From Candidatus Omnitrophota bacterium (lineage in GTDB: Bacteria; Omnitrophota; Gorgyraeia; 2-02-FULL-51-18), in the NCBI GenBank assembly GCA_016206825.1, contig JACQQY010000001.1:1-48864 (forward strand): 48,864 bases of DNA, given 5' to 3'. Positions 4,953 through 44,968 of this stretch are shown here, piece by piece (the stretch's first letter is position 1; the number at the start of each line of letters is the position of its first letter). A program made the position numbers and the translations under genes. The notes beneath the pieces were generated by a model. It ran no database searches and was not told the origin of the DNA. It was given only the letters and a program-made list of their open reading frames with translations.

Positions 4953-4954
4953 TC

Positions 4955-5764
4955 ATGCCTTTTGTTCTTCATTGGGCCCAGGAGCTTTGGAGGCCGGTCT
5001 TTGAGATCGTTCTTTTCTGGTTTATCTTTTATTTTCTGCTCGTTTACATTAAGGACAGCGGAATGGCGCAGGCATTGAAGGGGCTCGTCGTTCTGGTCGT
5101 GTTTTTTCTCGCGGCTCAGGTTTTCGAATTGAAAACGATTCGGTGGATTCTGGCGCATTTGTTCGAAATTTCCATTTTAGGGTGTTTGATCCTGTTCCAG
5201 CCGGAGCTCCGCCGCGGTCTCACGCGCATCGGCCAAAATCCTTTATTTAAAATTTTTCTGAAGGAAGAAAGGGCGGTGGAAGAGCTGGTGAAGGCGGTGA
5301 CGGCGCTTGCCGAAAGGAAAATAGGCGCTTTGATCGCCATTGAGCGGGAGGTGAGTCTTAAACCTTACGCGGAAACCGGGATTGCGCTCGATGGGATTCT
5401 CACGTCGGAGCTTCTTTTGACTATTTTTATGCCCAACACGCCCGTTCACGATGGAGGCGTGGTGGTCCAGGGCGGACGGGTGGTCGCCGTCGGTTGTCTT
5501 TTTCCTTTGTCGCAAAGTCAGAGTTTATCCAAGGTATTCGGCACCCGGCATCGCGCGGGGCTGGGGTTAAGCGAAGAGACCGACGCTCTTGTCATCGTGG
5601 CGTCCGAGGAGACGGGAGGCGTCAGCTTGATGAACCACGGCAAGATGATGCGCGAGGTGAACGAAGAGAAGCTGAGGCAGAATATCTTGGAGCTTTATAA
5701 GCCGCAGGGGGCGTCTTCGGCCAAGTCGTTTGGGAGGCGCCGTTTTTGGAGGCGTGGTTCCTAG
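4955..5764 (+). CDS. cdaA: Diadenylate cyclase CdaA (c-di-AMP synthase)
   Basis: Three N-terminal TM helices, then a DAC domain with motifs GALIAIERE, PVHDGGVVV and GTRHRAGLGLSEETDALVIVASEETG. Confidence 0.9.
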   Translation: MPFVLHWAQELWRPVFEIVLFWFIFYFLLVYIKDSGMAQALKGLVVLVVFFLAAQVFELKTIRWILAHLFEISILGCLILFQPELRRGLTRIGQNPLFKIFLKEERAVEELVKAVTALAERKIGALIAIEREVSLKPYAETGIALDGILTSELLLTIFMPNTPVHDGGVVVQGGRVVAVGCLFPLSQSQSLSKVFGTRHRAGLGLSEETDALVIVASEETGGVSLMNHGKMMREVNEEKLRQNILELYKPQGASSAKSFGRRRFWRRGS

Positions 5765-12500: not shown

Positions 12501-13408
12501 AACGGCTGAGGTTCAGCAAGAGCCGGCGCGAGCGTTTGAAGCGGGCGGCGCGGATTTTGGGATGGACCGCTTTTGCGGCGGGGGCTCTTTTCTTTTTGAT
12601 GAAGAGCGATGCCGTTCACCGGACGGCGGAGGGTTTTCTGTCGCCGCGCCCCGAGACCTTTCCTCTCGAGAAACCGGGCATCCCTCCTGCTTTTGCTCCG
12701 AAGCGCCCGGAGATTTTGCCGAGGACAAAGGCGGCGAAGATGGCGATTATCCTGGACGATTGGGGGAATAATTTTTCTTTGCTGAAAGACGCCGTCTCCA
12801 TCCAAAGGCCTTTGACCGTCGCTATCCTGCCTCATTTGCCTCAGAGCCGTAGGATCGCCGAGGAGGCGCGCCGGCGGGGACTTGGGGTCATGCTCCATAT
12901 ACCGATGGAACCTTTCGGGGCAGGACAGCCCCTCGAGCCTCATACCATTTTCCGGACCATGCCGGACGACAAGATCGTTCAGTATTTGGAAGAGGCGCTT
13001 CGGAGCGTTCCGTATGTCGAGGGCGTCAACAACCATCAGGGTTCTGCCGCAACCACGGATCCTCGGGTCATGCGTACGGTTCTCGGCTATTTGAAGAGGA
13101 GAGGATTATTTTTCGTGGATAGTCATGTGATTTCAAAAACAGTGGGACCCCGGATTGCGGCGGAGGTCGGCATCGATTTCGCCGAGAGGGACGTGTTTAT
13201 CGATAACCAGGCGGAGAAAGAGGCGATCAAGCAGAGTTTACGCAAGGCCAAGGTTCTGGTTAAGCGCAAAGGAGAGGTTATTGTGATAGGGCATGATAAA
13301 AAACCGACCCTGCAGGCGATTAAGGAGATGATTCCGGAGTTGGAGAAAGAAGGAGTACAGCTCGTGTTGGTGAGGGAGTTGGTGAAAGGCGCTCATGGAA
13401 AATCATAG
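12497..13408 (+). CDS. Divergent polysaccharide deacetylase family protein (YibQ-like)
   Basis: N-terminal TM helix, then AIILDDWGNN...PLTVAILP...MLHIPMEP...NNHQGS, a pattern typical of the YibQ family. Confidence 0.75.
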   Translation: MKRLRFSKSRRERLKRAARILGWTAFAAGALFFLMKSDAVHRTAEGFLSPRPETFPLEKPGIPPAFAPKRPEILPRTKAAKMAIILDDWGNNFSLLKDAVSIQRPLTVAILPHLPQSRRIAEEARRRGLGVMLHIPMEPFGAGQPLEPHTIFRTMPDDKIVQYLEEALRSVPYVEGVNNHQGSAATTDPRVMRTVLGYLKRRGLFFVDSHVISKTVGPRIAAEVGIDFAERDVFIDNQAEKEAIKQSLRKAKVLVKRKGEVIVIGHDKKPTLQAIKEMIPELEKEGVQLVLVRELVKGAHGKS

Positions 13409-13444
13409 GTTGACAGCGGAGAACTCGTAGAAACGCGCGGCACG

Positions 13445-13504
13445 AAAAACTAAAAGATTTTTGAACGAAAATGGGCTCCTTCGTCGTCTTATAAAGTAGG
13501 GGAC
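13445..13504 (+). promoter_or_regulatory. Conserved accessory-gene leader element, copy A
   Basis: TTGAAC (13461-13466), 18 nt, CGTC (13485-13488), TATAAA (13490-13495). A CTCCT (13476-13480)/AGGGG (13498-13502) stem encloses a 17-nt loop. Near-identical copies occur at 40041-40114 and 41817-41888. Confidence 0.5.
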
Positions 13505-13540
13505 ATAAGGCGAACCGATGAGTGAAGGAGGGAAAAGGCT

Positions 13541-14362
13541 ATGGAAACAACCAAGATAGCGGTGTTTAAGGGTAAGAAGGTGAGAAAAACGATTCACAAC
13601 AACGAGTGGTGGTTTGTCATCGAAGACGTTATTTTTGCGCTTACCGATTCGGATGACCCGAAGCAATACATTCAGCGCATGAAACAGCGCGATTCGGAAC
13701 TGGTGAAAGGGTGGGTACAATTTGTACATACCCTTTCTGTCTCGACGGAGGGCGGCAACCAAAAGATGAATTGCGCCAATACTGAGGGTGTTTTTCGTAT
13801 CGTCCAATCCATCCCCTCTCCCAAGGCCGAGCCTTTTAAACGCTGGCTGGCGAAAGTCGGTTATGAGCGTATCCAAGAGATCGAGGATCCTGAGCTTGCC
13901 ACTAAAAGAACCCGAGCTTTGTATAAAGCCAAGGGGTATAGCGATGCTTGGATTGAGAAGAGAATGCGCGGCATTGCGGTTCGGGAGCAATTGACGGGTG
14001 AATGGAAAAGCCGCGGGGTAAAAGAGGATAAGGACTATGCCATTTTGACCGCTGAGATTTCCAAAGCGGCTTTTGGCATGACACCCGCCGAATACAAAAA
14101 ATTTAAAGGCCTGGACCGAGAAAACCTCAGAGACCATATGACTGATCTTGAATTGATTTTTTCCATGTTGGGGGAAGCGGCTACAACAGAAATCGCGGTT
14201 AATAAGGATGCTCGGGGGTTTGAGGAGAACCAAAAGGCCGCTCAAGAAGGCGGCGGGGTTGCGGGAAAGGCCATGCAAGATTTGGAGAGCAAAAGCGGTA
14301 AACAAGTGGCTGCCAAGGAGAATTATTTGATCGAACCGCAGGATAAAAAGGCAATAAGATGA
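13541..14362 (+). CDS. Bro-N domain protein (DinD/antirepressor-like)
   Basis: The N-terminus IAVFKGKKVRKTIHNNEWWFVIEDVIFALTDS is Bro-N-like. The conserved SIPSPKAEPFKRWLAKVGYERIQEIEDPE block is typical of a widely dispersed Bro-N/DinD-like family. GC is visibly lower than in the neighbours. Confidence 0.7.
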   Translation: METTKIAVFKGKKVRKTIHNNEWWFVIEDVIFALTDSDDPKQYIQRMKQRDSELVKGWVQFVHTLSVSTEGGNQKMNCANTEGVFRIVQSIPSPKAEPFKRWLAKVGYERIQEIEDPELATKRTRALYKAKGYSDAWIEKRMRGIAVREQLTGEWKSRGVKEDKDYAILTAEISKAAFGMTPAEYKKFKGLDRENLRDHMTDLELIFSMLGEAATTEIAVNKDARGFEENQKAAQEGGGVAGKAMQDLESKSGKQVAAKENYLIEPQDKKAIR

Positions 14363-24026: not shown

Positions 24027-24056
24027 ATTACAAGAGCCTTATCGATGGAGGATGGG

Positions 24057-24263
24057 ATGAGCACCGTTACCATTTCGCCGAAGTTTCAAGTCGTCATTCC
24101 TAAAGAGACACGGGATAAACTCTGTTTAAAAGCCGGCCAGAAGGTGGAGATTTTGGATTACGAGGGACGCATCGAACTCGTTCCCATAAGAGCCATGAAG
24201 GAGCTGCGCGGGTTTTTAAGGGGGATCGATACTCGCGTGGAGCGGGATCGGGACCGTGCATGA
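24057..24263 (+). CDS. vapB: AbrB/SpoVT-fold antitoxin (VapB-like)
   Basis: MSTVTISPKFQVVIPKETRDKL is a SpoVT/AbrB looped-hinge-helix start. GGAGG lies 5 nt upstream of ATG 24057. Four-nt overlap with the downstream PIN gene. Confidence 0.75.
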   Translation: MSTVTISPKFQVVIPKETRDKLCLKAGQKVEILDYEGRIELVPIRAMKELRGFLRGIDTRVERDRDRA

Positions 24264-24634
24264 ATGTCGTCGATTCTTCGGGCTGGCTTGAGTATTTCGC
24301 CAACGGAGCTAACGCCGAAGTTTTTTCCAAGCCGATCGAGCAAGTCCCTCAGCTTTTGGTTCCTTCCATTACCATTACGGAAGTGTTCAAACGGGTTTTG
24401 CAGCAACGCGGCGAGCAAGCGGCTCTCCAAGCGGCGGCGCAGATGAACCAAGGCCGGGTCATTGGTTTGGACGTGACCTTAGCGGTAAAAGCGGCGAAGA
24501 TCGGATATGATTTAAAACTTCCCTTGGCGGACAGCATTATCTTGGCAACCGCCCGCGCTTATGATGCGCTCTTGTGGACACAGGACGAAGATTTTAAGGG
24601 GATCCCGGGCGTGCGCTGCCTGCCTAAGAGGTGA
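24260..24634 (+). CDS. vapC: PIN-domain toxin VapC
   Basis: 124 aa with N-terminal VVDSSGWLEYF (first acidic residue), the later ADSIILATA motif, and a final acidic DEDF. Confidence 0.8.
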   Translation: MNVVDSSGWLEYFANGANAEVFSKPIEQVPQLLVPSITITEVFKRVLQQRGEQAALQAAAQMNQGRVIGLDVTLAVKAAKIGYDLKLPLADSIILATARAYDALLWTQDEDFKGIPGVRCLPKR

Positions 24635-24710
24635 TAGTTCAAATTTTTCGCTCATGTTTAGGTGCATTTAGATGTCGGTCGTTGTGGAAATTCGAAAATT
24701 CGGATAGGGC

Positions 24711-24748
24711 TTGACGCCTAATTTTGACTATGGTAATATTACTATGGT
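24711..24748 (+). promoter_or_regulatory. Promoter/operator of phd-vapC-2
   Basis: TTGACG (24711-24716), 17 nt, TAATAT (24734-24739). Direct repeats ACTATGGT at 24727-24734 and 24741-48 flank the palindrome GTAATATTAC. Confidence 0.5.
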
Positions 24749-24766
24749 TATAAGGAGGTGGTTTCC

Positions 24767-24994
24767 ATGAATATGCCGGCAGGTTTGTTTAAGGCAAAGT
24801 GTTTGGAGTTGATGGATAAGGTTGAGCGGCTTCATGAAGAAATCATCATCACCAAATACGGAAGGCCAGTTGCCAAGCTCGTTCCTGTGGAGGAAGGGGG
24901 GAAAAAGTCCCTTGTTGGGTTTTTAAAGGGTTCCGTCGTCATTCGGGGGGATATTGTAGGGCCGACGGGAGTCAAGTGGGAGGCTGACCGGTAA
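24767..24994 (+). CDS. Phd/YefM-family antitoxin
   Basis: MNMPAGLFKAKCLELMDKVERLHEEIIITKYGRPVAKLVP is a typical Phd/YefM N-terminus. AAGGAGG lies 8 nt upstream of ATG 24767. Confidence 0.75.
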   Translation: MNMPAGLFKAKCLELMDKVERLHEEIIITKYGRPVAKLVPVEEGGKKSLVGFLKGSVVIRGDIVGPTGVKWEADR

Positions 24995-24997
24995 AAG

Positions 24998-25417
24998 ATG
25001 GACGAGCTTATCCTTTTGGATACTCATATATGGATTTGGCTCGTGAATGACGACAAAAAGATTCATTCACCTAAGTTTTTGTCTCGGGTGAACCATGCGG
25101 CTTCAAAAGGAGCCATCCGGGTTTCCATTATTTCCGTTTGGGAGGTCGCTGTTCTCGAAGCAAAAGGAAGGATTGTTCTCCCGTATAGTGTTTTGGAATG
25201 GGTTCAAAGAGCGCTCAAAGCGCCGGGGACGATGCTCGAACCCTTGACTCCCGAAGTGGCCATAAACAGCACGAAGATCGGTCCGGATTTTCATGAAGAT
25301 CCTGCCGATCGTATTCTGGTTGCGACGGCGAAAAGCTTGGGCGCCGCATTGGCTACTTGTGATGCCCGCATTCTTTCCTATTCCAAGGAGCATTCTCTCC
25401 CAACCCTGACGGTATGA
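24998..25417 (+). CDS. vapC: PIN-domain toxin VapC (second copy, unrelated sequence)
   Basis: 139 aa with LLDTHIWIW (first Asp), HEDPADRILVATA, and a terminal CDARI. Confidence 0.8.
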   Translation: MDELILLDTHIWIWLVNDDKKIHSPKFLSRVNHAASKGAIRVSIISVWEVAVLEAKGRIVLPYSVLEWVQRALKAPGTMLEPLTPEVAINSTKIGPDFHEDPADRILVATAKSLGAALATCDARILSYSKEHSLPTLTV

Positions 25418-27864: not shown

Positions 27865-28155
27865 GTGATTACGTATTTTCGAGATCCCGGCACGGAGGAT
27901 ATTTTTAACGGTATTTCCTCGAAGAAGGCCTTGAGGTTTCCGCGGGAGATTTGGCCTGTTGTCCAGCGCAAACTGGATATGCTCAACGCCGCTTATGAAC
28001 TTAAGGATCTCATGGCTCCGCCGGGCAATCGATTGGAGAAATTGAAAGGTGAGCTCAAGGAATTTTACAGCATTCGGGCGAACGATCAATTTCGGATCCT
28101 TTTTAAATGGACCGGCAACAACGCAACGGATGTCGAATTAACCGATTACCATTAA
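27865..28155 (+). CDS. higB: HigB-type toxin (plasmid maintenance system killer family, RelE/ParE superfamily)
   Basis: ITYFRDPGTEDIFNG...LKDLMAPPGNRLEKLKGELKEFYSIRANDQFRILFKW matches the HigB/killer-protein pattern. It lies upstream of its antitoxin, the inverted order typical of HigBA. Confidence 0.85.
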   Translation: MITYFRDPGTEDIFNGISSKKALRFPREIWPVVQRKLDMLNAAYELKDLMAPPGNRLEKLKGELKEFYSIRANDQFRILFKWTGNNATDVELTDYH

Positions 28156-28176
28156 ACGTAAAAGGGGTTAAACAAC

Positions 28177-28449
28177 ATGATTCCCAAATATCGCAAACCT
28201 AATCATCCGGGCGAGGTTCTTCTGCATGAGTTTTTGGAGCCTCATCACACAAGTCAAGTCGAACTTGCAAGGAAAATGGACGTTCCTATCCAGCGGGTGA
28301 ATACCTTAATTAACGAGAAGAGGGATGTCACCGCGGAGACGGCTATCCTCTTAAGCCGCGCGCTCAAAACCTCCCCGGAGTTCTGGATGAATCTTCAAGC
28401 GGCTTACGATCTTTATGAGGCCAAGCTCCAGCTTAAACTGGCCGCTTGA
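28177..28449 (+). CDS. higA: HigA-family antitoxin (XRE HTH)
   Basis: PNHPGEVLLHEFLEP...SQVELARKMDVPIQRVNTLINEKRDVTAETAILLSRAL is the classical HigA/VapI HTH. Confidence 0.85.
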   Translation: MIPKYRKPNHPGEVLLHEFLEPHHTSQVELARKMDVPIQRVNTLINEKRDVTAETAILLSRALKTSPEFWMNLQAAYDLYEAKLQLKLAA

Positions 28450-28852: not shown

Positions 28853-29143
28853 CTACAGATTCCTGAGGAACCTCGAGACCGCATCGTGGTCCCCGGCCAG
28901 GATGAACGAAACTCTGTTCCTCTCTCTGGCCCACAGGATTCTTAAGGCAAGACTGATTCTCGCTTCAAAAATCTGAGCGTCCCCGGCATGATGAAGCTTT
29001 TTAACCCTAAGACCATAAGAGGCTTTTCCCGTGCGGCAGTATTCACGTATCTCTTCATCCGCGAGGAGGACCAGTTCTTGCTCTCTTCTGCTTAAGGAAT
29101 CAAAGGACTTTAAATATTCCTTCTTGTAGATAACTTCAATCAC
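28853..29143 (-). CDS. RelE/ParE-superfamily toxin
   Basis: 96 aa with a GTG start, overlapping the upstream antitoxin stop by 8 nt. Size and pattern (KSFDSL...YGLRVKKLH...IFEARISLALRILW...VSFILAGDHD) are typical of RelE/ParE folds. Confidence 0.65.
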   Translation of the reverse strand: MIEVIYKKEYLKSFDSLSRREQELVLLADEEIREYCRTGKASYGLRVKKLHHAGDAQIFEARISLALRILWARERNRVSFILAGDHDAVSRFLRNL

Positions 29144-29402
29144 GCCTCACCCGCTTCTTAAGAAAAACCTTTGCCTCCTCCGGCGAAACGACTTTATCTC
29201 CCGGCTCGAGAGTAAACGCCTTCTTAAGAAGTCTTTCGTAAGCTTCGGCGGGCAGACGTTCTTCAATGTCGACGGGTTTGAGGCAAATAACGCCTTTCAT
29301 ATATTCCACATCCACATAGTCGTTCCCTTCCCGGATATGGGCCTTTTTGACGATATCCTTTGGAAGCGTGACCTGGTTCCCACGAGTGACTTTGGCTAAC
29401 AT
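29136..29402 (-). CDS. AbrB/SpoVT-fold antitoxin
   Basis: An internal ATG at 29402 gives MLAKVTRGNQVTLPKDIVKKAHIREGNDYV..., with a GGAGGG SD upstream. The 178-aa ORF-track version runs into murA and is rejected. Confidence 0.7.
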   Translation of the reverse strand: MLAKVTRGNQVTLPKDIVKKAHIREGNDYVDVEYMKGVICLKPVDIEERLPAEAYERLLKKAFTLEPGDKVVSPEEAKVFLKKRVRRD

Positions 29403-29497
29403 GGTCTTCCCTCCTCTCAGAAAGCAAGTATACATGGAAAAAGTAAAAAAGTAAATCCCTATTACGAAGACACCGTGATGAGGAGGTAAAAACAAAG

Positions 29498-29527
29498 TTG
29501 TTATCCGCTTGGGGAAAGAATTATAAT
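29498..29527 (+). promoter_or_regulatory. Putative murA promoter
   Basis: TTGTTA (29498-29503), 18 nt, TATAAT (29522-29527), 23 nt before the murA ATG. Confidence 0.45.
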
Positions 29528-29550
29528 GGTAAACCTTATGGCGGTGGAAG

Positions 29551-30816
29551 ATGGATAAGCTCGTTATCGAAGGCGGGAGGCGGTTGGAGGGGGTGGTGGA
29601 GATCGGGGGCGCGAAGAACGCTTCGCTTCCGATTTTAGCGGCCACCGTGCTTTCCAGGGACGCGTCGGTCATTCGGAACGTTCCTCAGGTGGCCGACGTT
29701 TTCACCCTGGTGAGGATCCTCAAGTTTCTCGGCGCAAAGGTGCGGCACGAAAAAGACAGGGTTGAGGTGGATCCACGGGGGATCAGCGAACCCGTTTTGC
29801 CGTATAAGCTGGTCAGCACCATGCGGGGTTCGATTTGTTTTCTCGGGCCTCTTCTGGCCAGGTTTGGACGCGCGCGGGTCTCGTTTCCCGGCGGGTGCAT
29901 CATCGGCCCGCGGCCCATTGATTTGCACATCAAGGGAATCAGGGCGCTGGGCGCCGATGTGACGCTGGATCACGGGTACGTGGTCGCGGAGGCCGAAAGG
30001 TTGAGAGGGGGGCGGGTTTATCTCGGAGGCGCTTTCGGTTCCACCGTTCTTGGGACGGCGAACGTCATGATGGCCGCAACGCTCGCGAAAGGGAAAACTC
30101 TCATCGAGAACGCGGCTTGTGAGCCGGAGGTGGTGGATCTGGGGAATTTTTTGAAGAAAATGGGCGCGAGGATCGAGGGTCTGGGATCGCCCTCCATTCG
30201 GGTTGAGGGCGTCAAGAGGCTCGGCGGAGCCCATCACTCGGTGATTCCCGACAGGATCGAGGCGGGCACTTACATGATCGCTTCGACGATGACTTCCGGG
30301 GACGTCACGGTCAAGAACATGCGTCTTGACCTATTGAGCGCGATGGTGGATAAATTGGGGGAAGCCGGAGCGCTGATGACCGAGAAAAACGGATCGGTGA
30401 GAGTCCGCCGGCGGAGAGGTCCGTTGAAGCCCGTTTCCGTCACGACGCTTCCTTATCCCGGTTTTCCCACGGACCTTCAGGCTCAGATGATGGCCTTTAT
30501 GTGCGTGGTTCCCGGGATCAGCGTGATCACCGAAAAAATCTACCCCGAACGGTTTATCCACATCAGTGAATTAAACCGCATGGGGGCCGGCATCATTCTT
30601 GAAGGTCCCAGCGCCATTGTGAGCGGGAGAAAGAAACTGAGCGGAGCGCCCGTCATGGCTTCGGATCTGAGGGCCAGCGCCGCTTTGGTTTTGGCCGGCC
30701 TTGTGGCCGAGGGGCGCACGGAAGTTTCGAGGGTCTATCACTTGGATCGCGGCTATGAGAATTTGGTGGGGAAGCTCCGCAATTTGGGAGCGAGGATTAA
30801 GAGAGAAAAGGAATAG
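29551..30816 (+). CDS. murA: UDP-N-acetylglucosamine 1-carboxyvinyltransferase
   Basis: 421 aa, starting MDKLVIEGGRRLEGVVEIGGAKNASLPILAA. The active-site Cys is in the FPGGCIIGPRPIDLH context. Confidence 0.95.
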   Translation: MDKLVIEGGRRLEGVVEIGGAKNASLPILAATVLSRDASVIRNVPQVADVFTLVRILKFLGAKVRHEKDRVEVDPRGISEPVLPYKLVSTMRGSICFLGPLLARFGRARVSFPGGCIIGPRPIDLHIKGIRALGADVTLDHGYVVAEAERLRGGRVYLGGAFGSTVLGTANVMMAATLAKGKTLIENAACEPEVVDLGNFLKKMGARIEGLGSPSIRVEGVKRLGGAHHSVIPDRIEAGTYMIASTMTSGDVTVKNMRLDLLSAMVDKLGEAGALMTEKNGSVRVRRRRGPLKPVSVTTLPYPGFPTDLQAQMMAFMCVVPGISVITEKIYPERFIHISELNRMGAGIILEGPSAIVSGRKKLSGAPVMASDLRASAALVLAGLVAEGRTEVSRVYHLDRGYENLVGKLRNLGARIKREKE

Positions 30817-31779: not shown

Positions 31780-32183
31780 TTCAAGAAATAGAAGCGGAAC
31801 AGATGAAGCTGTTGAAGAAGGATATCCCCCGGTTTAAAGTGGGGGATACCGTTTCCGTGTCGGTGAAGGTGGAAGAAGGCGATAAGGTCCGGACCCAGAT
31901 GTTCGAGGGGGTCGTGATCCGCAAACAGGGTTCCGGCCTGCGGGAGAGTTTCACCGTTCGGAAGATTTCCTTTGGAGAAGGGGTAGAGCGCAGTTTCCCT
32001 TTTTATTCTCCGACCGTGCAGGCCGTGCAGGTGATGCGGTCAGGGAAAGTCCGCCGCGCGAAGCTTTATTACTTAAGGAAAACGGTAGGGAAGAAGGCGA
32101 GGATTGAGGAGGAACGCAGACCCGAGGAAGCGCCGTCCGCACCGCCTGCTTCCTCTCCGGCACCGAATATTTTGGCCTCGTAG
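31767..32183 (+). CDS. rplS: 50S ribosomal protein L19 with Pro/Ala-rich C-terminal tail
   Basis: [32 protein letters not shown]...[10 protein letters not shown], plus about 20 extra residues ([24 protein letters not shown]). Confidence 0.9.
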
Positions 32184-32239
32184 GGGCGAACCTATGTGTT
32201 CGCCCAAACCTAGGTCAGGGCAGACACATAGGTCTGCCC
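32184..32239. repeat. Two related REP-like hairpins
   Basis: GGGCGAAC-CTATGT-GTTCGCCC (32184-32205) and GGGCAGAC-ACATAG-GTCTGCCC (32218-32239). The loops are reverse complements of each other, and a CCTAGG palindrome lies between them. Confidence 0.6.
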
Positions 32240-32274
32240 CTACCGAGGGAGGGGGGATAAGAAGAAGAGAAGCA

Positions 32275-37941: not shown

Positions 37942-38032
37942 GACCAAGAGGCTCCGGCGTTCTGCCAATCCCGCCGAATATAAGCTTTATCGAGCCGCCC
38001 TTGAATGGAGGGGCTAAACTATCGCATTTTTC

Positions 38033-38077
38033 TTGACTTCATATTTCAGTTATGATACACTTCTGTCATAATTATGA
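38033..38077 (+). promoter_or_regulatory. Putative abiE promoter and palindromic operator
   Basis: TTGACT (38033-38038), 17 nt, TACACT (38056-38061). A perfect 12-nt palindrome TCATAATTATGA (38066-38077) spans the abiEi ATG, with a half-site repeat TTATGA at 38051-38056. Confidence 0.3.
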
Positions 38078-38703
38078 AAAGCAAACAAAACCTACTAGAC
38101 CAGTTAAAAGGCATGCCCCATTTCAGCAAAGACAGTTTGTATCAGCTCGGCAAGCAACTGGGGCTTGCAGATGCCACGGTTAACACCTATGTAAGCCGCT
38201 TTTTGAGGCATAAGGAAATTATTCAACTGAAAAGGGGGCTGTATGTCGCAACCGACTTTTTCAGTAAAAATAGGAGCAACCTTTCCTATTCCTTTTATTT
38301 AGCCAACATTATTCGCACACCTTCCTATGTCAGCTCATGGTCGGCACTTCAATTTTACAACCTCACCACCGAAGCTATCCACGGCATAACGTGTGTCACG
38401 CCGAAAGTGACCAGAACCTACAGGACTAAGGCCGGTAATTTTTCGTATCAGTCCATCAAGCAGGATCTGTTTTCAGATTTTTCATTGATGCGGGGCAAAG
38501 GTCCCTCATTTGATTTTTTCATCGCCTCCCCGGCCAAAGCTTTGTTTGATTTACTCTACTTCAAAACTAGCCAGTTCCGCAGTGTTCGCATAAAAGACAC
38601 AAAGGCGCTCGTTGAAGAATTGCGGATCGATATTAACGAAATGGATAAAAAGGAGCGGTCCAGATTTTATGCATGGATCGAAAAGTATTTTCACGGTGAG
38701 TGA
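38074..38703 (+). CDS. abiEi: AbiEi-family antitoxin/transcriptional regulator (type IV TA)
   Basis: 209 aa. The N-terminal wHTH-like region (FSKDSLYQLGKQLGLADATVNTYVSRFLRHKEIIQLKRGLY) and the C-terminal PSYVSSWSALQFY... pattern are typical of AbiEi. It lies directly upstream of, and overlaps, an AbiEii gene. Confidence 0.8.
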   Translation: MKSKQNLLDQLKGMPHFSKDSLYQLGKQLGLADATVNTYVSRFLRHKEIIQLKRGLYVATDFFSKNRSNLSYSFYLANIIRTPSYVSSWSALQFYNLTTEAIHGITCVTPKVTRTYRTKAGNFSYQSIKQDLFSDFSLMRGKGPSFDFFIASPAKALFDLLYFKTSQFRSVRIKDTKALVEELRIDINEMDKKERSRFYAWIEKYFHGE

Positions 38704-39985
38704 TCAAATTCTTGCAGTTTTAAAAGGAAAGCTTGATGATCTTGCCTCGCAGGGCGGGGCGGACCCCGAAACACTCCGTAACGCCCTTAAAGAGGAGCTC
38801 CAGTTTTATGTCCTTAATTTTATTTATCATCATCCGGAATACAATCAGTGGGTCATGTATGGCGGCTCCGCGCTTCGCATCATTTATGGACTTGACCGCA
38901 TGTCGGTCGATTTAGATTTTGAGGTTTCGGGCGAAGTAACTAAAAAATTTCTGGATGAACTAAAAGAAGAAATCGAAGATCATTTTTCCCGCACCTATGG
39001 GGCCCATCCGGATTTCTTGACCGCCAAAATTGTTACGGAAAGAGGGCTGCTTCTTAAATTCAATGTCGGTGAAGCATTAAGCCTGGGCCATTCATCCAGT
39101 CAGGTGCATGTTAAAATTGATCTCAATTATTTCACTGCCACCAAGGGGGTGACGGAGCGCCGGCCGATCAATCGTGACCAGCTTTCCTTTGTGATTGTGA
39201 CTTATAAAATGTCGACGCTTATGGCCAGCAAAGTGGCCGCAATCTTCCTGCGCGGGACGCGCGGCGTGGGCAAAGCTCTTTATGAGGAAAAGGGCCGTGA
39301 TATTTATGACCTTCTGTGGTACATGAACAACAGGATCGTGCCTGATCTTGATTATCTTGTAGCTAAAAATGTGAAAGAGGCCAAAGACTTACGCACCCTT
39401 TTCGATAAACTTACGGTTAAGATGAATGCCGTCAGTGATGCAAACCTCAAGCAGGATCTTCTGCCGCTTTTTGTGAATCGCACTTACATTGAAAATTGGC
39501 TCAAAAACTGGAGGGACAGCTATTTGCGGCTTGTCGATGCGTACAAAATCTGCATGGTAACGACATTAGAAAGTGTGCGCATACACCAGCATTTTGATAC
39601 GGATAATTTTTCTTTTCTATTTACTTACAACACCGAAGAAGAAGGCAAAACTTGCCGGATACGATACGCGGTCAGCGAATACTGGCTGGAATGTCGGGAA
39701 GGGGATTTATCGATTAAGCCTGACCAAAAAATAACTAGTCTTATAAAAATGACACGTGATGGCGTAAGCACCCAATCGCTTCCTGAGAGCAAGCTCAGGC
39801 AGTACGCCACGCTTTTCTACCAAAAAACTGAAAATTATTTAAACAAAGTCAAGCGGAACCTGCTTGGCAGGAGCATCGATACAAAACTGATTAGAATGAC
39901 CGCCGATAACTTAAACCAGAAAGAGCAGATCGTGCTCAATAAATCAGCGCTCTTGTCTTGTGAACTAGATGATTTATTAAAATAA
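38669..39985 (+). CDS. abiEii: AbiEii/AbiGii-family nucleotidyltransferase toxin with ~140-aa C-terminal extension
   Basis: NTase motif YGGSALRIIYGLDRMSVDLDFEV, a later KIDLN acidic site, and GRDIYDLLWYM (the family-typical RDxYDL). At 438 aa from ATG 38669 (alternative GTG 38696) it is longer than my recollection of about 250-300 aa for the family. Confidence 0.8.
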   Translation: MHGSKSIFTVSDQILAVLKGKLDDLASQGGADPETLRNALKEELQFYVLNFIYHHPEYNQWVMYGGSALRIIYGLDRMSVDLDFEVSGEVTKKFLDELKEEIEDHFSRTYGAHPDFLTAKIVTERGLLLKFNVGEALSLGHSSSQVHVKIDLNYFTATKGVTERRPINRDQLSFVIVTYKMSTLMASKVAAIFLRGTRGVGKALYEEKGRDIYDLLWYMNNRIVPDLDYLVAKNVKEAKDLRTLFDKLTVKMNAVSDANLKQDLLPLFVNRTYIENWLKNWRDSYLRLVDAYKICMVTTLESVRIHQHFDTDNFSFLFTYNTEEEGKTCRIRYAVSEYWLECREGDLSIKPDQKITSLIKMTRDGVSTQSLPESKLRQYATLFYQKTENYLNKVKRNLLGRSIDTKLIRMTADNLNQKEQIVLNKSALLSCELDDLLK

Positions 39986-40040
39986 ACCGTTTGGCGGGGA
40001 CGAGAGGGGTCAATTCAAGCCGCTCTCCTCTTACCTGCCG

Positions 40041-40114
40041 GTTAGTCAATAAAAAATCTAGAAAATGTTTGAACGAATTTGCCTTCCTCGGTCGTCTTAT
40101 AAGGTAGGAGGAGG
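40041..40114 (+). promoter_or_regulatory. Conserved accessory-gene leader element, copy B
   Basis: GTTAGTC (40041-40047), TTGAAC (40069-40074), 18 nt, CGTC (40093-40096), TATAAG (40098-40103). A CTTCCT (40083-40088)/AGGAGG (40106-40111) stem encloses a 17-nt loop. The 3' arm is the SD of the protease gene. Confidence 0.5.
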
Positions 40115-40122
40115 TTTTGGCG

Positions 40123-41112
40123 ATGAGGAAGAGAAGCGCTTTCACGCTTTCAAGAGTGCATGCGGAAGCGGAGCAGTGGCACAGCGGGCGGGTCGACTTG
40201 TTGAGGAGAATAGAGAGGTATTTTCAGAAACGCATTTTGGTTTTTCAAACCTCTTTTTTCTTCGACAATGGTCTTATCACCGACGGGGATGCGGCGATGC
40301 TGGAGGAGGTCTTATTAAGCAGTAAGATCCGGGACAATCTTTTGCTTCTTATCAACTCTTCCGGAGGGTTTGGTTTGGCGGCGGAAAGGATCATTCGCGT
40401 TTGCCGGAAGTATTCCAAAAGCGGCTTTGAGGTTTTGGTGCCTCACATGGCCAAATCGGCCGCCACCCTTGTTTGTTTGGGTTCCAAAAAGGTGTGGCTG
40501 GGAGAGACCTCGGAGCTTGGGCCGGTGGACCCGCAATTGGCCGTTCAGAATCGGAGAATATCCGTTCACAACATTATCAAGAATTACGACAGGCTTTTAT
40601 CGAGAGCGGCTCTGGCGAAGGGCCGCATCGAACCTTATTTGCAGCAGCTTTCGGTGTACGATCCCCGCACGATCGAACAGCTTCGTCAGGAACTGAAGCT
40701 CTCCGAAGAAATGTCCATCCGCCTTTTGAGGACCGGCATGATGAAGGGGCAGGGCGAAAAAGCGATTCGGACGCTCATCCGGGTTTTTATTGATCCGGAA
40801 GAGACGCTTCAGCATGGCCGCCCCATTTACCATGAGCGGGCGAAGGATTGCGGTATCATCATCGGCACGCTGGGGTTGGACAATCCTATATGGAACGCCA
40901 TCTGGGAACTGCAACTGCGTTACGATCACGTCCTGAACCGCGCTTATGGCAAGCTTTTTGAAGCGGTGGGGAGCTCCTTTACCATGCCGGGTTATCGCTC
41001 CTCCGCGGGTGAACCGGTCCCTTGTTTGGAGGAAATGAAATGGGCAGAACAGAACCTGGGAGAGGGATCAAGGCTCTTGCCGGGCAACGGTCGAAAATGT
41101 TTGAGTTATTGA
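40123..41112 (+). CDS. SDH-family (serine dehydrogenase proteinase, ClpP/crotonase-fold, MEROPS clan SK) serine protease
   Basis: LLLLINSSGGFGLAAERIIRVCRKY...VLVPHMAKSAATLVCLGSKKVWLGETSELGPVDPQ closely follows the family pattern (TPGG..A...I; AMSAGTLIAL.ADEI.M...LGPIDPQ). ATG 40123 lies 8 nt after AGGAGGAGG. Confidence 0.7.
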   Translation: MRKRSAFTLSRVHAEAEQWHSGRVDLLRRIERYFQKRILVFQTSFFFDNGLITDGDAAMLEEVLLSSKIRDNLLLLINSSGGFGLAAERIIRVCRKYSKSGFEVLVPHMAKSAATLVCLGSKKVWLGETSELGPVDPQLAVQNRRISVHNIIKNYDRLLSRAALAKGRIEPYLQQLSVYDPRTIEQLRQELKLSEEMSIRLLRTGMMKGQGEKAIRTLIRVFIDPEETLQHGRPIYHERAKDCGIIIGTLGLDNPIWNAIWELQLRYDHVLNRAYGKLFEAVGSSFTMPGYRSSAGEPVPCLEEMKWAEQNLGEGSRLLPGNGRKCLSY

Positions 41113-41201
41113 AGCGGTTTCCGGTGAAAGGAGACGTTTCTCTTCTGCCTCCCAGAGGATGGGACGTCTGGGAACCGGAAAAAAGCTTTAGGAATGTTGA
41201 G

Positions 41202-41429
41202 TCATTCTCTTAGGAGATCGGACCCCTGCACTTCCAGGGCCTTTGCGATTTTGGATAAGGTGGGTAAGGAGGGAAGATCGGTTTGAGAGGTCATTTCCAG
41301 CCTCTGCCAGTATTTTAAGGTAATATCCGCTTTCTCGGCGGCCTGCTCTTGAGTGAGTTTCAACCCCGCCCGGTATTTCTTGATATTCTGCACTAAAACC
41401 TGCTTGATTTTCGTTTTGTTGTCTTTCAT
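41202..41429 (-). CDS. XRE-family helix-turn-helix transcriptional regulator
   Basis: 75 aa. NIKKYRAGLKLTQEQAAEKADITLKYWQRLE...LPTLSKIAKALEV is a canonical HTH_3/Cro-CI fold pattern. Confidence 0.8.
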   Translation of the reverse strand: MKDNKTKIKQVLVQNIKKYRAGLKLTQEQAAEKADITLKYWQRLEMTSQTDLPSLPTLSKIAKALEVQGSDLLRE

Positions 41430-41511
41430 CGAAACCGCCTTAACTTAAGATTGCTCCTATTATCCGTTATCGTACCCCAAAGTGAACACTCACAAAGAGG
41501 TATGTTTTTTA

Positions 41512-41540
41512 TTGACATACTTTAAAGGTATGGTTAAAAT
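41512..41540 (+). promoter_or_regulatory. Strong sigma70-type promoter of the small divergent ORF
   Basis: Consensus TTGACA (41512-41517), exactly 17 nt, then TAAAAT (41535-41540). Confidence 0.6.
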
Positions 41541-41562
41541 GACGACCGTTGGAGTTGGCCTC

Positions 41563-41787
41563 ATGTTTGACTATGAAATGCACATCACTCTGCACAATGG
41601 AACGTTGAAGAAGACAACCTATCGTCATCTTGTGGAGGTCTTGACGATTTGGGATGAGGGTTTGGGCTGTGAACTCTTTGCCATCCCCACGGTTTTTCAA
41701 GCCCATCATCTCGCCGGTCTTCTCAAGGACCACTTCCCTCACATCCAAATGGTGCAGATTTTTGATGGAGAGGGAAGGGAAGTTTAG
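41563..41787 (+). CDS. Small hypothetical protein (74 aa), divergent from the XRE gene
   Basis: ATG 41563 is the first start downstream of the predicted promoter, with GGAG 8 nt upstream. The ORF-track starts at 41482/41530/41539 lie before or inside the promoter. No recognisable domain. Confidence 0.4.
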   Translation: MFDYEMHITLHNGTLKKTTYRHLVEVLTIWDEGLGCELFAIPTVFQAHHLAGLLKDHFPHIQMVQIFDGEGREV

Positions 41788-41816
41788 GCAAGCCGATAAA
41801 TGGAAAAAGGAGACAA

Positions 41817-41888
41817 GTTAGTCGATAGAAAAATCTTGATTTTCTTTGAACGAAAATAGCCTCCTCCGTCGTCATATAAAGTAGGAGG
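41817..41888 (+). promoter_or_regulatory. Conserved accessory-gene leader element, copy C
   Basis: GTTAGTC (41817-41823), TTGAAC (41846-41851), 18 nt, CGTC (41870-41873), TATAAA (41875-41880). A GCCTCCT (41859-41865)/AGGAGGC (41883-41889) stem encloses a 17-nt loop. Confidence 0.5.
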
Positions 41889-41961
41889 CATGATGTGCCT
41901 GAGTGGACGAGCGTCTCACTCAGTTTAACCGAAACCTAAATAAAAAAGGAGAATTCGTCCC

Positions 41962-42783
41962 ATGAAAAAGAAGCATCTTCTTGTTTCTCTGATAGCCGTG
42001 ACCTTACTCTCAAACTCTTACCTTCATGCGGCCTCGGTGGGTTCGGGCAGAACGATTCCGCAGGGTCAATTGGCCGTTGGGGCTGAGTACAACCATATCT
42101 TTGACAAAGACATGGACCCCAAAACGAAAGGTCTGGATGGTTACGATTCCATGGAGATAGATGAGAGCAATCAGGTTTATGGCGTTATCTCCTACGGCCT
42201 TTTTCAAAATGACCGTCTCGCCGCGGACCTTTCGGTTAAATTGGGCGCAGGGGATCTGGTCACCCAAGGCGTCGACGGGACTTTCTTCAACAAGGAGAGA
42301 ATCGAATACGACATGGGTTTTCTGTGGGGCATCGGCGGGAAGGTCGGTATTCAGTTTGATAAAGGGTGGAGTCTTTCGCTTCACGCCGGCTACGATGCTT
42401 GGGAATCTGATTTGGACAGCATCACCTATAGCGGCGAGAAAGCGTTTAACGTTGAAGGGGCGAAGACCGCAAAAGTCAGCGAGTTTCAAGCCGCCATCCT
42501 CTTCAATTTTCACTTAGACATGAAAGAGTCGAACGGCATGGTCTTCGTTCCTTATGTGGGCCCCGTGTTCGACTGGATGCGCGTCAAGACAGGCAGGATC
42601 TCCTACGAGACGGCCAGTTTCACGAGCACGAACACCGCCACCGGCGCTAAAGACGCCAAAGACAACGTCGGAGTGGTTGTCGGCGCGGACGTCTTTTGTT
42701 TCAACGATGCTTTGAAGCTCAATGTGGAAGGCAGGTTCATCTCGGAAGAGGCCCTCTCCGTGTCATTGCGTTACCGGTTTTGA
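41962..42783 (+). CDS. Outer-membrane beta-barrel protein (signal peptide, C-terminal YRF)
   Basis: Signal peptide MKKKHLLVSLIAVTLLSNSYLHA|AS. Alternating amphipathic strands rich in G/Y/D. Terminal LSVSLRYRF OMP signature. AAGGAG SD. Confidence 0.65.
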   Translation: MKKKHLLVSLIAVTLLSNSYLHAASVGSGRTIPQGQLAVGAEYNHIFDKDMDPKTKGLDGYDSMEIDESNQVYGVISYGLFQNDRLAADLSVKLGAGDLVTQGVDGTFFNKERIEYDMGFLWGIGGKVGIQFDKGWSLSLHAGYDAWESDLDSITYSGEKAFNVEGAKTAKVSEFQAAILFNFHLDMKESNGMVFVPYVGPVFDWMRVKTGRISYETASFTSTNTATGAKDAKDNVGVVVGADVFCFNDALKLNVEGRFISEEALSVSLRYRF

Positions 42784-42809
42784 CCCAAAGAGGTTGTTTT
42801 CAAGAGGAC

Positions 42810-43325
42810 ATGGCGTTGGCAAGAAGCGATAAGGGTCAAAGGCGGCTTAAGGCATGGATTGCTTTTTGTGTCGTGGTGACGGGAGTCGCTGTGGCCATGT
42901 TGCTCCCTAGGCGTGGCTGGGGAAGCGTCTATTATCATTTTCTGATATGCGAGGTTTCGATTTCCGAAGCCAAGGCCGTGAAAATGATTTACGTATCGAA
43001 ATTAGCCGGTCGATCGGCATACGAGGAGTTAGGTGTTGAGAAAAAAATGCTTTTCAACGGTTTCAGGGTTCTCGAGGAGAATTGTTTCAAGGGTTCGGAG
43101 TTTTTTGATTTGTGGATCGATGTCACCTGTGAGGAGTGGTTCAAAGGCAAATTCCAAGACGCCCCTTCTTCTCAACCTTATATTCGGTTCAGGGATTTGC
43201 AAGGGAATGAGAGTCTTGTTTATTTTGCCGGTGAAGGCGAGGCGTTCCTTGGCAGCGCGATTGAAAAAGCGGAAGGCGTTCTAAGGACTGCCGGTATGGA
43301 GAATTACCGTGTGATTGGGTCGTGA
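42810..43325 (+). CDS. Hypothetical membrane-anchored protein
   Basis: One N-terminal TM helix (AWIAFCVVVTGVAVAMLL), with no recognisable domain. The start is uncertain because ATG 42810 has a poor SD. Confidence 0.4.
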   Translation: MALARSDKGQRRLKAWIAFCVVVTGVAVAMLLPRRGWGSVYYHFLICEVSISEAKAVKMIYVSKLAGRSAYEELGVEKKMLFNGFRVLEENCFKGSEFFDLWIDVTCEEWFKGKFQDAPSSQPYIRFRDLQGNESLVYFAGEGEAFLGSAIEKAEGVLRTAGMENYRVIGS

Positions 43326-43373
43326 AAAGTGGCGGCATGTTGTTGGTTTAAAAGGAAAGGAAGAGGTGTTTTT

Positions 43374-43868
43374 ATGACAAAGGTTAGTATGGGGATGGTG
43401 TTGGCAGGTTCATTCTTTTTTTCAAGTGTTCTCTCAGGCTGTTCGGTGGGGATGGCCCTGTCGGGTAAGGAACAAAAGGACGTATCGGTGCTGGCACCGG
43501 GCGCCCCTCGTGACACGGTGATCGCTCACTTGGGTCCTCCTCAGACGAGCGTCACCGGCCCGGATGGACTCTTGATTGACACATGGGATGTGGTGAAGGG
43601 AAATAACCCAAGCGCGGGCCGGGCCATTGTGCATGCGGGTATGGATTTTTTGACGTTGGGCCTTTGGGAAATCGCGGGAACGCCCATCGAACTGGCGGCA
43701 GGGCAAGAGGCGCACACGATTTACACCATTACTTACGATAAGGAAAATAAAATTAAGAACTTGTCCGCTTCGGATCGGGTGGTGGCAGGCTCGCCTCCTA
43801 CCAAGGAGGAAAAGGCGGCAAAGGGAACCCTGCCGACCCCTAAGAACAAAAGCAAAGGGGGTTTCTGA
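43374..43868 (+). CDS. Lipoprotein (possibly BamE/SmpA-OmlA-like fold)
   Basis: ATG 43374 with an AGGAAGAGG SD. Signal peptide with lipobox LSGC. The BamE-like assignment is only a resemblance (RDTVIAHLGPPQTSV). Confidence 0.6.
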   Translation: MTKVSMGMVLAGSFFFSSVLSGCSVGMALSGKEQKDVSVLAPGAPRDTVIAHLGPPQTSVTGPDGLLIDTWDVVKGNNPSAGRAIVHAGMDFLTLGLWEIAGTPIELAAGQEAHTIYTITYDKENKIKNLSASDRVVAGSPPTKEEKAAKGTLPTPKNKSKGGF

Positions 43869-44050
43869 TTTTTGAGCAAACTGTTGCATTGGAAGGGTTT
43901 TTTAGCAGACGGTTAAGAAAGGGGTAAGGACATGAACAATAAGAGTGTTGTTTTGATGTTTCTGACCATCCTTCCTGCCCCACGATCTTTTTTGCCCAAG
44001 AAGGTGTTAAAGTTGATGCATGTTCACTGTATAATTATGGTATAATTACT

Positions 44051-44335
44051 ATGCGATTCGAATGGGATGAAAGAAAAAACGTCGTTAACCAACGAAAGCA
44101 TGGGGTTTCGTTTGAAGAAGCGGCAAGTGTTTTCTATGATGAAAACGGCAGGTTTAAATCCGATCCGGATCATTCTGAAAACGAGGAAAGGTTTATCCTT
44201 TTGGGTGTCAGCTCAAAGCTAAGGTTCCTTGTGGTTTGTCATTGTTATGGGGAAAAAGATGAGGTGATAAGAATCATCTCGGCCAGAGAAGCGGCCAAGA
44301 GGGAAAGAGGAGAATACATGGAGTTTCTATCATGA
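44051..44335 (+). CDS. brnT: BrnT-family toxin (DUF497 ribonuclease)
   Basis: MRFEWDERKNVVNQRKHGVSFEEAASVF...RFILLG...VIRIISAREAAKRER is the classical BrnT pattern. Confidence 0.8.
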   Translation: MRFEWDERKNVVNQRKHGVSFEEAASVFYDENGRFKSDPDHSENEERFILLGVSSKLRFLVVCHCYGEKDEVIRIISAREAAKRERGEYMEFLS

Positions 44336-44544
44336 GAAAAGAATATGATTTCTTAGATTCGAAGAAGAATCCTTACGCGCGGCTTCTTAAAAGACAGATC
44401 ACCATTAGACTCGGCATAGAAGTCATCGCTTATTTCAAAGACCTCTCCCGCAGGGTAGGAATTCCTTATCAGAATCTCATCAATCTGTATTTAAAAGAAT
44501 GCGCAGACTCCAAGAAAAGACCGCAAGTTCATTGGGGTCATTGA
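44332..44544 (+). CDS. brnA: BrnA-type (CopG/RHH) antitoxin
   Basis: Four-nt overlap with brnT. KKNPYARLLKRQITIRLGIEVIAYFKDLSRRVGIPYQNLINLYLKEC is an RHH-type C-terminus typical of BrnA. Confidence 0.7.
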   Translation: MRKEYDFLDSKKNPYARLLKRQITIRLGIEVIAYFKDLSRRVGIPYQNLINLYLKECADSKKRPQVHWGH

Positions 44545-44623
44545 TCGGCAGATAGTGCCGATAGACTGCATCCGAAGAACGTGTTTCTTGACAGCCCTTC
44601 CCGCAATCCTTTCCCGCCCTTCG

Positions 44624-44653
44624 TTGACAGCGTAACTTCTTGTGTGATAAGAT
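44624..44653 (+). promoter_or_regulatory. Putative promoter of the HU/IHF gene
   Basis: TTGACA (44624-44629), 18 nt, TAAGAT (44648-44653), with an upstream TG. Confidence 0.4.
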
Positions 44654-44689
44654 GATGCAAAATTTACAATTTGTGGGAGGGGTGCCGGC

Positions 44690-44968
44690 ATGGCGGTGAC
44701 GAAGAAAGAGATTGTGATGAAAATCGCGGAGGAGACGGGGATCAAGCAGTTGGAGGTGAAGCGCGTGGTCCAGGCCGTTTTGGATAAAATTATCGGGTAT
44801 TTGGCGGCGGGGCAAAAGGTTGAGCTTCGGAATTTCGGGGTTTTTAAGGTGAAATCCCGGCGGGGGCGCTTGGGACGCAACCCGCGCACGGGCCAGGAGG
44901 TGCCGGTTCCTCCGAAAAAGGCGGTGGCGTTTAAGGCGGGTTTGATCATGAAGAGGGACGTGAGGTAA
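44690..44968 (+). CDS. HU/IHF-family DNA-binding protein
   Basis: 92 aa. KKEIVMKIAEETGIKQLEVKRVVQAVLDKI...VELRNFGVFKVKSRRGRLGRNPRTGQEVPVPPKKAVAFKAG is the canonical family pattern. Confidence 0.85.
   Translation: MAVTKKEIVMKIAEETGIKQLEVKRVVQAVLDKIIGYLAAGQKVELRNFGVFKVKSRRGRLGRNPRTGQEVPVPPKKAVAFKAGLIMKRDVR

Follow-up and report, generated by a model that had tools for sequence, protein, structure and literature searches.

A candidate promoter module, related to the 5' region of RAYT-like transposase genes, heads three accessory genes in an Omnitrophota contig

The window considered here, meaning the whole stretch of DNA that was analysed, is a complete 48,864-nt contig of a metagenome-assembled genome (MAG) that carries the NCBI label Candidatus Omnitrophica. 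It holds three copies (A, B and C) of a conserved module of about 45-75 nt, each followed on the same strand by an accessory gene: a Bro-N / DinD-like gene (ATG 13541), a gene for an SDH-type protease (ATG 40123) and an outer membrane protein (OMP)-like gene (ATG 41962). Sequence comparison relates the module to the control region found 5' of the genes of a Y1 transposase family, and its layout resembles that of a promoter joined to a Shine-Dalgarno (SD) sequence.

Three module copies and the genes behind them

The pattern TTGAACGAA-N6-YTCCT-NN-GTCGTC-N-TATAAR has exactly three matches in the window, all on the + strand (13461-13495, 40069-40103 and 41846-41880), and none in 100 dinucleotide shuffles, even with 3 mismatches allowed. 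The spacing of TTGAAC, 18 nt, CGTC, 1 nt and TATAAR is the same throughout. Similarity between copies B and C spans about 60-75 nt and includes an upstream box, GTTAGTC(A/G)ATA(A/G) (GTTAGNNRATAR), that occurs at 40041 and 41817 only (0.11 occurrences expected). The first-pass annotation had described the three copies, their common geometry, the extra box of B and C, the short upstream open reading frames (uORFs) at 13518-13559 and 41890-41928, and the 8 nt between SD and ATG in copy B, and all of these read as it described them. Searches of the window with nhmmer profiles built from four and then ten variants of the module returned no weaker extra copies. The modules and the genes that they head are laid out as follows.

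13440-13502, + strand: module copy A, with an AT-rich flank (13440-13460), TTGAAC (13461-13466), a CTCCT tract (13476-13480), CGTC (13485-13488), TATAAAGT (13490-13497) and AGGGG (13498-13502)
13541-14362, + strand: Bro-N / DinD-like gene, with its own SD, GGAGG (13528-13532), and a stop codon that overlaps the ATG of tsaD
40041-40114, + strand: module copy B, with the box GTTAGTCAATAA (40041-40052), an AT-rich flank, TTGAAC (40069-40074), a CTTCCT tract (40083-40088), CGTC (40093-40096), TATAAGGT (40098-40105) and AGGAGGAGG (40106-40114), the last being the SD of the protease gene
40123-41112, + strand: SDH-type ClpP-like serine protease gene, its ATG 8 nt past the purine box
41817-41889, + strand: module copy C, with the box GTTAGTCGATAG (41817-41828), an AT-rich flank, TTGAAC (41846-41851), a GCCTCCT tract (41859-41865), CGTC (41870-41873), TATAAAGT (41875-41882) and AGGAGGC (41883-41889)
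41890-41961, + strand: 72-nt extra leader of copy C, made up of a 12-codon uORF (41890-41928) and then the downstream gene's own SD, AGGAG
41962-43868, + strand: OMP-like gene and two open reading frames (ORFs) of no assigned function

The product of the Bro-N / DinD-like gene matches the Pfam family Bro-N (2e-14) and, over its full length, the PADLOC candidate defence gene PDC-S13 (1.3e-111). The protease matches Pfam SDH_protease (2e-10) and, below the cut-off, NCBIfam Clp_like_SDH (1e-12). The OMP-like gene has a weak Pfam match to OMP_b-brl (9e-4, below cut-off), and the two ORFs that follow it matched nothing in library searches that included Pfam, PADLOC and NCBIfam. Exact look-ups of the Bro-N and SDH proteins of the window returned no record of either. 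The uORFs behind copies A and C are probably incidental.

Transposase relatives and the movement of the module

A scan of 185,579 species-representative genomes with the exact pattern matched one other genome, a MAG labelled Planctomycetia (locus L001). Two identical module copies lie there, both directly 5' of the start codon of a Y1 transposase, one of them a truncated remnant. The transposase is 202 aa long and matches Pfam Y1_Tnp; its nearest NCBIfam model, below the cut-off, is the repetitive extragenic palindromic (REP)-associated tyrosine transposase (RAYT). The same pattern found this organism again in metagenomes, together with two chance matches within coding sequence, and had no match in viral sequences; exact patterns are too strict for diverged copies of the module. 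The L001 transposase has about 700 homologues, and among the few with source names several are labelled Omnitrophica; no relatives of it were found in viral contigs. Five more transposase loci were inspected, with proteins 47-57% identical to that of L001 and a range of 45-58% over all the homologues that carry diverged modules, and such a module stands directly 5' of the ATG in every one. These five loci supplied six further variants (L006, L011, the two paralogues L018+ and L018-, L021 and L026), which together with the window copies A-C and the L001 copy (D) make up the set of ten used below, aligned on TTGnAC as idx 0-5. Copies A-D are 75-86% identical, and thus closely related.

An nhmmer profile of the ten variants, run against the window and the fetched loci, matched at module sites only, with E values from 1e-6 to 1e-13 (1e-12 to 1e-13 for the window copies, 1e-6 to 1e-10 for seven transposase lineages). 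The box GTTAGnnRATAR accompanies the module in five of the ten variants (B, C and three transposase loci) and has no occurrence apart from it in the window or in 39 fetched loci. REP-like or left-end hairpins lie 5' of the module in L001, L006, L011, L018, L021 and L026, and in L006 such a hairpin is also present 3' of the transposase gene, as expected for a RAYT or IS200-like element. Since modules stand directly 5' of Y1 transposase genes in seven lineages, sequence homology identifies the element as the control region upstream of RAYT-like (IS200-like, Y1) transposase genes, a family widespread in Omnitrophota.

The window copies are this module detached from any transposase and heading three unrelated accessory genes. 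No Y1 transposase is present on the contig (best tblastn E value 0.66), and searches for transposase-codon remnants 3' of the window modules gave chance-level matches only. Upstream of copies A and C there are no REP-like hairpins, and upstream of copy B there is only a weak terminator-like fold.

Two features of individual loci may be added. Locus L018 holds two diverged RAYT-like paralogues, each with its own module (2441-2492, + strand, and 4925-4977, - strand); they are convergent and about 1.3 kb apart, with start codons about 2.4 kb apart, and the pyrimidine tract of the spacer is weak in one and absent in the other. The uORF of copy C contains a 10-bp hairpin (41899-41923, CTGAGTGGAC-GAGC-GTCTCACTCAG) that may be an attenuator or a relic of a REP; the REP-like hairpins in L006 and L026 share its ACTCAG/CTGAGT. 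A loose-pattern match on the minus strand of L006 (3789-3817) was dismissed as chance.

Copy A and its gene lie in a precise insertion, recognised by comparison with the nearest relative, L032, whose TsaD is 70% identical to that of the window.

13388-14358, + strand: 971-bp insertion with module A and the Bro-N / DinD-like gene, between a polysaccharide-deacetylase gene and tsaD

In L032 the deacetylase gene and tsaD overlap by ATGA with nothing between them. Homology to the window ends after ...TTGGTGAAA (13387) and resumes at ATGA (14359), so that the order gatB-deacetylase-[971 bp]-tsaD of the window contains a module-plus-Bro-N cassette absent from the relative, a moron-like arrangement seen for copy A only. 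The module itself starts about 50-70 nt inside the insertion. The insertion took away the ancestral stop of the deacetylase gene, which now ends six codons (GAHGKS) into the insert (13388-13408), and the ancestral overlap with tsaD (ATGA) passed to the Bro-N stop. The same sequence was assembled independently as L005, a Logan contig from run SRR12113385 that has the tsaD ATG (window 14359) as its position 1. This break at the right-hand junction hints at a branch in the assembly graph; the population may be polymorphic, with filled and empty sites.

Genes 75-79% identical to the Bro-N gene occur in Phycisphaerales, Patescibacteria, KSB1, Smithella and others, a conservation across very distant phyla that is unusually strong for a mobile single gene. 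Two Omnitrophota orthologues of it lack the module, one being embedded in a purine operon and the other having an unrelated upstream region; module and gene are therefore independent units that were joined in this lineage, and the module is portable. One way in which the module can join other genes is seen in L001, where a repeated block of about 110 nt, 100% identical, flanks kaiC-cheB (3140-3262 and 5491-5611). The block consists of the hairpin GGGACCAAGTCCC, the module and the first nine transposase codons, and its first copy is a solo left end about 120 nt 5' of kaiC-cheB. Flanking direct or inverted repeats were looked for around the window cassettes and none were found.

The contig is otherwise ordinary chromosome, with ftsH, folP, cdaA, pdxJ, gatCAB, tsaD, polA, rho, prfA, rpsP, trmD, rplS, guaA, dnaE, hisS, aspS, ybeY and three tRNAs. 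Copies B and C lie in an accessory island of lower GC content.

38000-44900, no strand: accessory island in the dnaE-hisS interval (from Pfam and PADLOC matches and GC content), with copies B and C
24045-25417, 27865-28449, 29136-29672, 38074-39985 and 44051-44544: toxin-antitoxin and abortive-infection loci of the window

The island has a GC content of 0.44-0.51, against 0.53-0.58 elsewhere, and contains AbiEi/AbiEii, the SDH protease gene, a helix-turn-helix (HTH) gene, the OMP-like operon and BrnT/BrnA. Many toxin-antitoxin pairs are scattered among the housekeeping genes; the toxin-antitoxin and abortive-infection load of the contig comprises two VapBC-like pairs, HigBA, a MazE-like gene, AbiEi/AbiEii and BrnTA. 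No module stands in front of these or of the other accessory genes of the contig. Directly 3' of the rplS stop lies a 64-nt double-hairpin palindrome (32180-32243, GTAGGGGC...GCCCCTAC) that looks like a GTAG-tagged REP doublet (REPIN), which suggests that the genome has a RAYT elsewhere than on this contig.

Promoter, leader, operator or relic

The ten variants share one ungapped frame, namely an AT-rich flank, TTGnAC, 18 nt, CGTC, yT, (r)TAnnGT and (A)GGAGG. The 22 nt 5' of the first box are 55-95% AT, compared with 39-55% for the loci as a whole. The first box (idx 0-5) reads TTGAAC, CTGAAC, TTTGAC, TTGCAC or TTGCAA, usually followed by GAAAA, and its core is TGAAC in five variants, (T)TGAC in two and TGCAC/TGCAAC in three. 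At idx 24-27 stands CGTC in nine of the ten variants and CGCC in the other. The distance between the two boxes is 18 nt in all ten (17 nt if TGCAAC/TTGACG is read one base later) and free of indels, though the spacer sequence varies. The purine box (A)GGAGG occupies idx 37-42, with a start codon 6-9 nt past it in window copy B and in the transposase copies except L021. The pyrimidine tract, which the first-pass annotation took as the 5' arm of a hairpin, sits within the 18-nt spacer at a variable position (two bases further 3' in L011), and the supposed loop of that hairpin, from CGTC to GT, is the best conserved part of the module. Two boxes at an indel-free distance, a variable spacer and an AT-rich flank are characteristic of a promoter and not of an RNA hairpin, and a promoter with an SD fits the module better than a structured RNA leader does. 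We put the probability that the module is a portable, transposase-derived promoter and SD unit at about 0.5.

Sigma factors of the extracytoplasmic function (ECF) class are often encoded next to the genes that they control and autoregulated, and transcription from their promoters starts 6-8 nt after the -10 element. Hallmark motifs of these promoters are an AAC-type -35 and a CGTC -10, at a spacing of 14-17 nt (PMC5758882). The module has both an AAC-type -35 and a CGT(C) -10: TGAAC, TGCAC or TTGAC is followed, at a strict spacing, by a near-invariant CGTC close to the consensus, and the -35 is directly followed by an A-tract, in the place of the T-tract of some ECF promoters (PMC5758882). It differs from them in its 18-nt spacing, in having AC rather than AAC in half of the variants, in lacking a cognate sigma or anti-sigma gene nearby, and in heading transposase and accessory genes instead of an autoregulated sigma operon. 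Because the hallmark motifs come with an 18-nt spacing, one base above that range, and no sigma gene, the layout is here called no more than ECF-like. An alternative-sigma promoter was one of the three readings offered in the first-pass annotation and is the best-fitting of them, though the spacing difficulty that the annotation had itself pointed out persists.

Other promoter classes fit less well. The distance from TTGAAC to TATAAR (23 nt) or to TAnnGT (25 nt) is too long for a sigma-70 promoter, and the hexamer 17 nt 3' of TTGAAC reads nCGTCy. A sigma-70 consensus scan listed canonical sites with 17-18-nt spacing elsewhere in the island, without the modules, and the geometry of the module is thus distinct. 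A sigma-54 promoter was rejected for want of GG-N10-GC. The GTTAGYCGATAR box resembles the -10 element of FliA (sigma-28) promoters, but TAAA is missing at the right distance and the box is absent in half of the variants. In L021 the module reads TATAGGGAGAC at about 2453-2463 (idx 31-41), an 11-mer that also makes up positions -5 to +6 of the T7 phi10 promoter; a promoter for a T7-like single-subunit polymerase was discounted there as a coincidence of an AT-rich box beside a purine box.

According to the promoter and SD reading, RNA polymerase with an alternative, ECF-like sigma factor would bind the AT-rich flank, the -35-like TTGnAC and the CGTC(Y)T box 18 nt further on. The start of transcription would fall at the conserved T|A (or T|G) step with which the purine box begins, 9-11 nt after CGTC, and the element's own mRNA would thus begin with an unpaired SD. 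Transcripts that read through from upstream would also carry the CCUCC tract, which could pair with the SD and block translation; if the AGGAGG box is the start site, such pairing would be confined to read-through transcripts. The genes that copies A and C head carry SDs of their own, 30-70 nt further downstream, and at these two sites the module is therefore probably a promoter only.

The evidence for the pairing itself is mixed. A CCUCC-like anti-SD tract is present in nine of the ten variants, weak in L018+ and absent in L018-. The duplex between spacer and SD is stronger than in composition shuffles (p<0.02) in five variants (C, D, L006, L011 and L021) and weaker in the others. Pairing with a real SD is predicted in B, D, L006, L011, L026 and L021, with duplexes of -8 to -15.5 kcal/mol. 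As a folded hairpin, which the first-pass annotation had drawn for all three window copies, the pairing is the minimum-free-energy structure in C and D only (-6.9 and -11.4 kcal/mol for 30-33-nt segments folded alone; z-scores -2.4 and -3.3) and marginal in B. L021 has its functional SD 25 nt further downstream, and GCCUC and GAGGC pair all the same; the G-C at the stem base of D is a C-G in L006; and internal mismatches of the stems are exclusively G-U. These three observations favour real pairing in the sense-strand RNA. A co-directional upstream gene is present in each of the five variants that pair most strongly, and two of the weak ones have a divergent neighbour, in numbers too small to test. 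Of the stem, no more is firmly established than a pyrimidine tract opposite a purine tract.

Several points weigh against a promoter and SD unit of this kind. The 18-nt spacing lies beyond the ECF range of 14-17 nt (PMC5758882), and there is no sigma-factor gene among the annotated ORFs of the contig. Were transcription to begin at the purine box, only a very short 5' stretch would precede the SD. In copy A the hairpin is not the favoured structure, and L018- has no 5' tract at all. Covariation of the arms, proposed in the first-pass annotation as a check on the stem, was not significant column by column: the score of 0.258 (0.228 in shuffles) was reached by 121 of 500 shuffles, 66.3% of cells were paired against 64.5% in shuffles, and a partner slid by +1 or +2 columns scored as well. 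There are, moreover, only ten variants, four of them (A-D) closely related.

The first-pass annotation had also proposed an SD-sequestering riboregulator and a junction sequence of mobile cassettes. Each of its three readings holds part of the picture, and none names the element as the 5' region of a transposase gene. The riboregulator could be a constitutive 5' leader: transcription would start upstream of the module, for example in the GTTAG or AT-rich region, the whole module would be 5' untranslated region (UTR), and the CCUCC/GGAGG hairpin would repress every transcript, possibly until relieved by a factor or by temperature. IS200 uses exactly such a device (PMC4513863), and the folds of C and D, the five duplexes above shuffles, the G-U-only wobbles, which pair in the sense strand alone, and the GTTAG box kept upstream in five of the ten variants all agree with it. 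Against this stand a loop more conserved than its arms and an indel-free 18-nt spacing, both out of the ordinary for an RNA hairpin loop and characteristic of a promoter with the tract in its spacer. No promoter-like pair lies upstream of the module, where half of the variants lack the GTTAG box; the idx-37 purine box is retained in A, C and L021 though it is not the SD of the downstream gene; Rfam gave no family match at the gathering threshold or at E<=5; and the covariation result lends no help. A constitutive leader is accordingly rated unlikely, if worth keeping in mind. Considerably less weight is given to the boxes being operators for a DNA-binding regulator, such as the RAYT itself or a protein that represses or activates the transposase gene, with the TAnnGT box as the only real promoter. 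TTGnACGAAAA forms an 11-nt conserved block, longer than a -35 hexamer, TTGnAC lies too far (23-25 nt) from TATAAA/TAnnGT for sigma-70, and cassettes B and C have an HTH gene between them (41202-41429, minus strand). The boxes, however, have no dyad or direct-repeat symmetry, the ten loci have no regulator gene in common, and a promoter consisting of a -10 alone needs an extended TG in register, which here is absent or off by one.

Two explanations remain. The window copies might be inert remnants of transposon left ends that lie before genes by chance and have no present function, like the solo left end with nine transposase codons in L001; the contig has no Y1 transposase, and the purine box is not the gene's SD in A and C. 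All three copies are nevertheless sense-oriented and 8-72 nt before a start codon, the hairpins and transposase codons expected of a simple remnant are absent, and the boxes are intact (0 mismatches) despite differences of 14-25% over 44 core positions, so that this reading is judged quite improbable. Least credible of all is an attC-like recombination or junction site of mobile gene cassettes. What speaks for it is that copy A is near the 5' edge of a precise 971-bp insertion and that B and C lie in a low-GC island. The module is nonetheless 50-70 nt inside the insertion and has no features of a recombination site, no matching element was found at the 3' ends of the cassettes and no repeats flanking them, the contig encodes no integrase or transposase, and in seven other lineages the module is the plain upstream region of one gene family.

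Known systems and the use of the module

In IS200 the SD of the transposase gene is sequestered in a stem-loop of the left end, and the 5' UTR of tnpA holds both arms, with transcription starting at about nt 40 and the stem at nt 69-138 (PMC4513863). The module resembles this arrangement in lying 5' of a Y1 (HUH) transposase gene and downstream of terminal hairpins, and in having an anti-SD tract that could pair with a near-consensus SD. It departs from it in that the 5' tract lies between two promoter-like boxes and that the stem is short (5-8 bp) with a loop of 15-18 nt. Nor has it any sequence similarity to IS200 or a known antisense RNA, and the window modules are attached to no transposase.

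A start between two complementary segments, as proposed here, would recall IS10 and IS50. In IS50 the transposase gene is protected from outside promoters in the same way as in IS10, the SD or start codon being sequestered in read-through transcripts only. For IS10 itself (Tn10), Davis, Simons and Kleckner (1985) reportedly describe protection from external promoters in which only externally initiated transcripts fold and are translationally silent. The transposases of these elements are of the DDE type and that of the module is Y1/HUH, the sequences are unrelated, and the mechanism of the module is deduced from its anatomy only.

Copy A is also comparable to phage morons and to promoters borne by insertion sequences, being a self-contained (predicted) promoter that heads an acquired gene among housekeeping genes; like the latter, the module comes from a mobile element and is used by non-transposon genes. 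Unlike a moron, copy A is not in a prophage, and unlike promoters borne by insertion sequences, the module is neither outward-facing nor hybrid, but a predicted inward-facing transposase promoter and SD unit fused to other ORFs.

Transposase left ends with anti-SD stems, insulation against read-through, ECF-like promoters and mobile-element promoters that drive neighbouring genes are thus all known singly. What is new is their combination in a RAYT-linked module of unusual spacing that is sharply conserved across a phylum, and its reuse, without transposase or hairpins, in front of three unrelated accessory cassettes of a single 49-kb contig. A bolder proposal is that the module is the site of a dedicated, lineage-wide ECF-like sigma factor or regulator with a long spacer, governing RAYTs and defence or accessory genes as a "mobilome regulon", or else that RAYT-linked left ends equip new genes with a read-through-insulated expression unit; we regard it as speculative and rather unlikely.

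Omnitrophota form a phylum of uncultured, very small bacteria that may be predatory or parasitic, and to our knowledge nothing experimental has been reported on their promoters or gene regulation. With its fixed frame, kept across transposase genes no more than 45-58% identical, the module makes a sharply delimited candidate promoter (about 45 nt) and offers a concrete, testable handle on an alternative promoter class in this phylum. It also shows a route along which the expression unit of a transposase could come to drive horizontally acquired genes, among them a candidate defence gene that has been widely transferred. If transcription does start between the complementary tracts, the module would represent an independent invention, in the Y1/HUH family, of the read-through insulation of IS10 and IS50.

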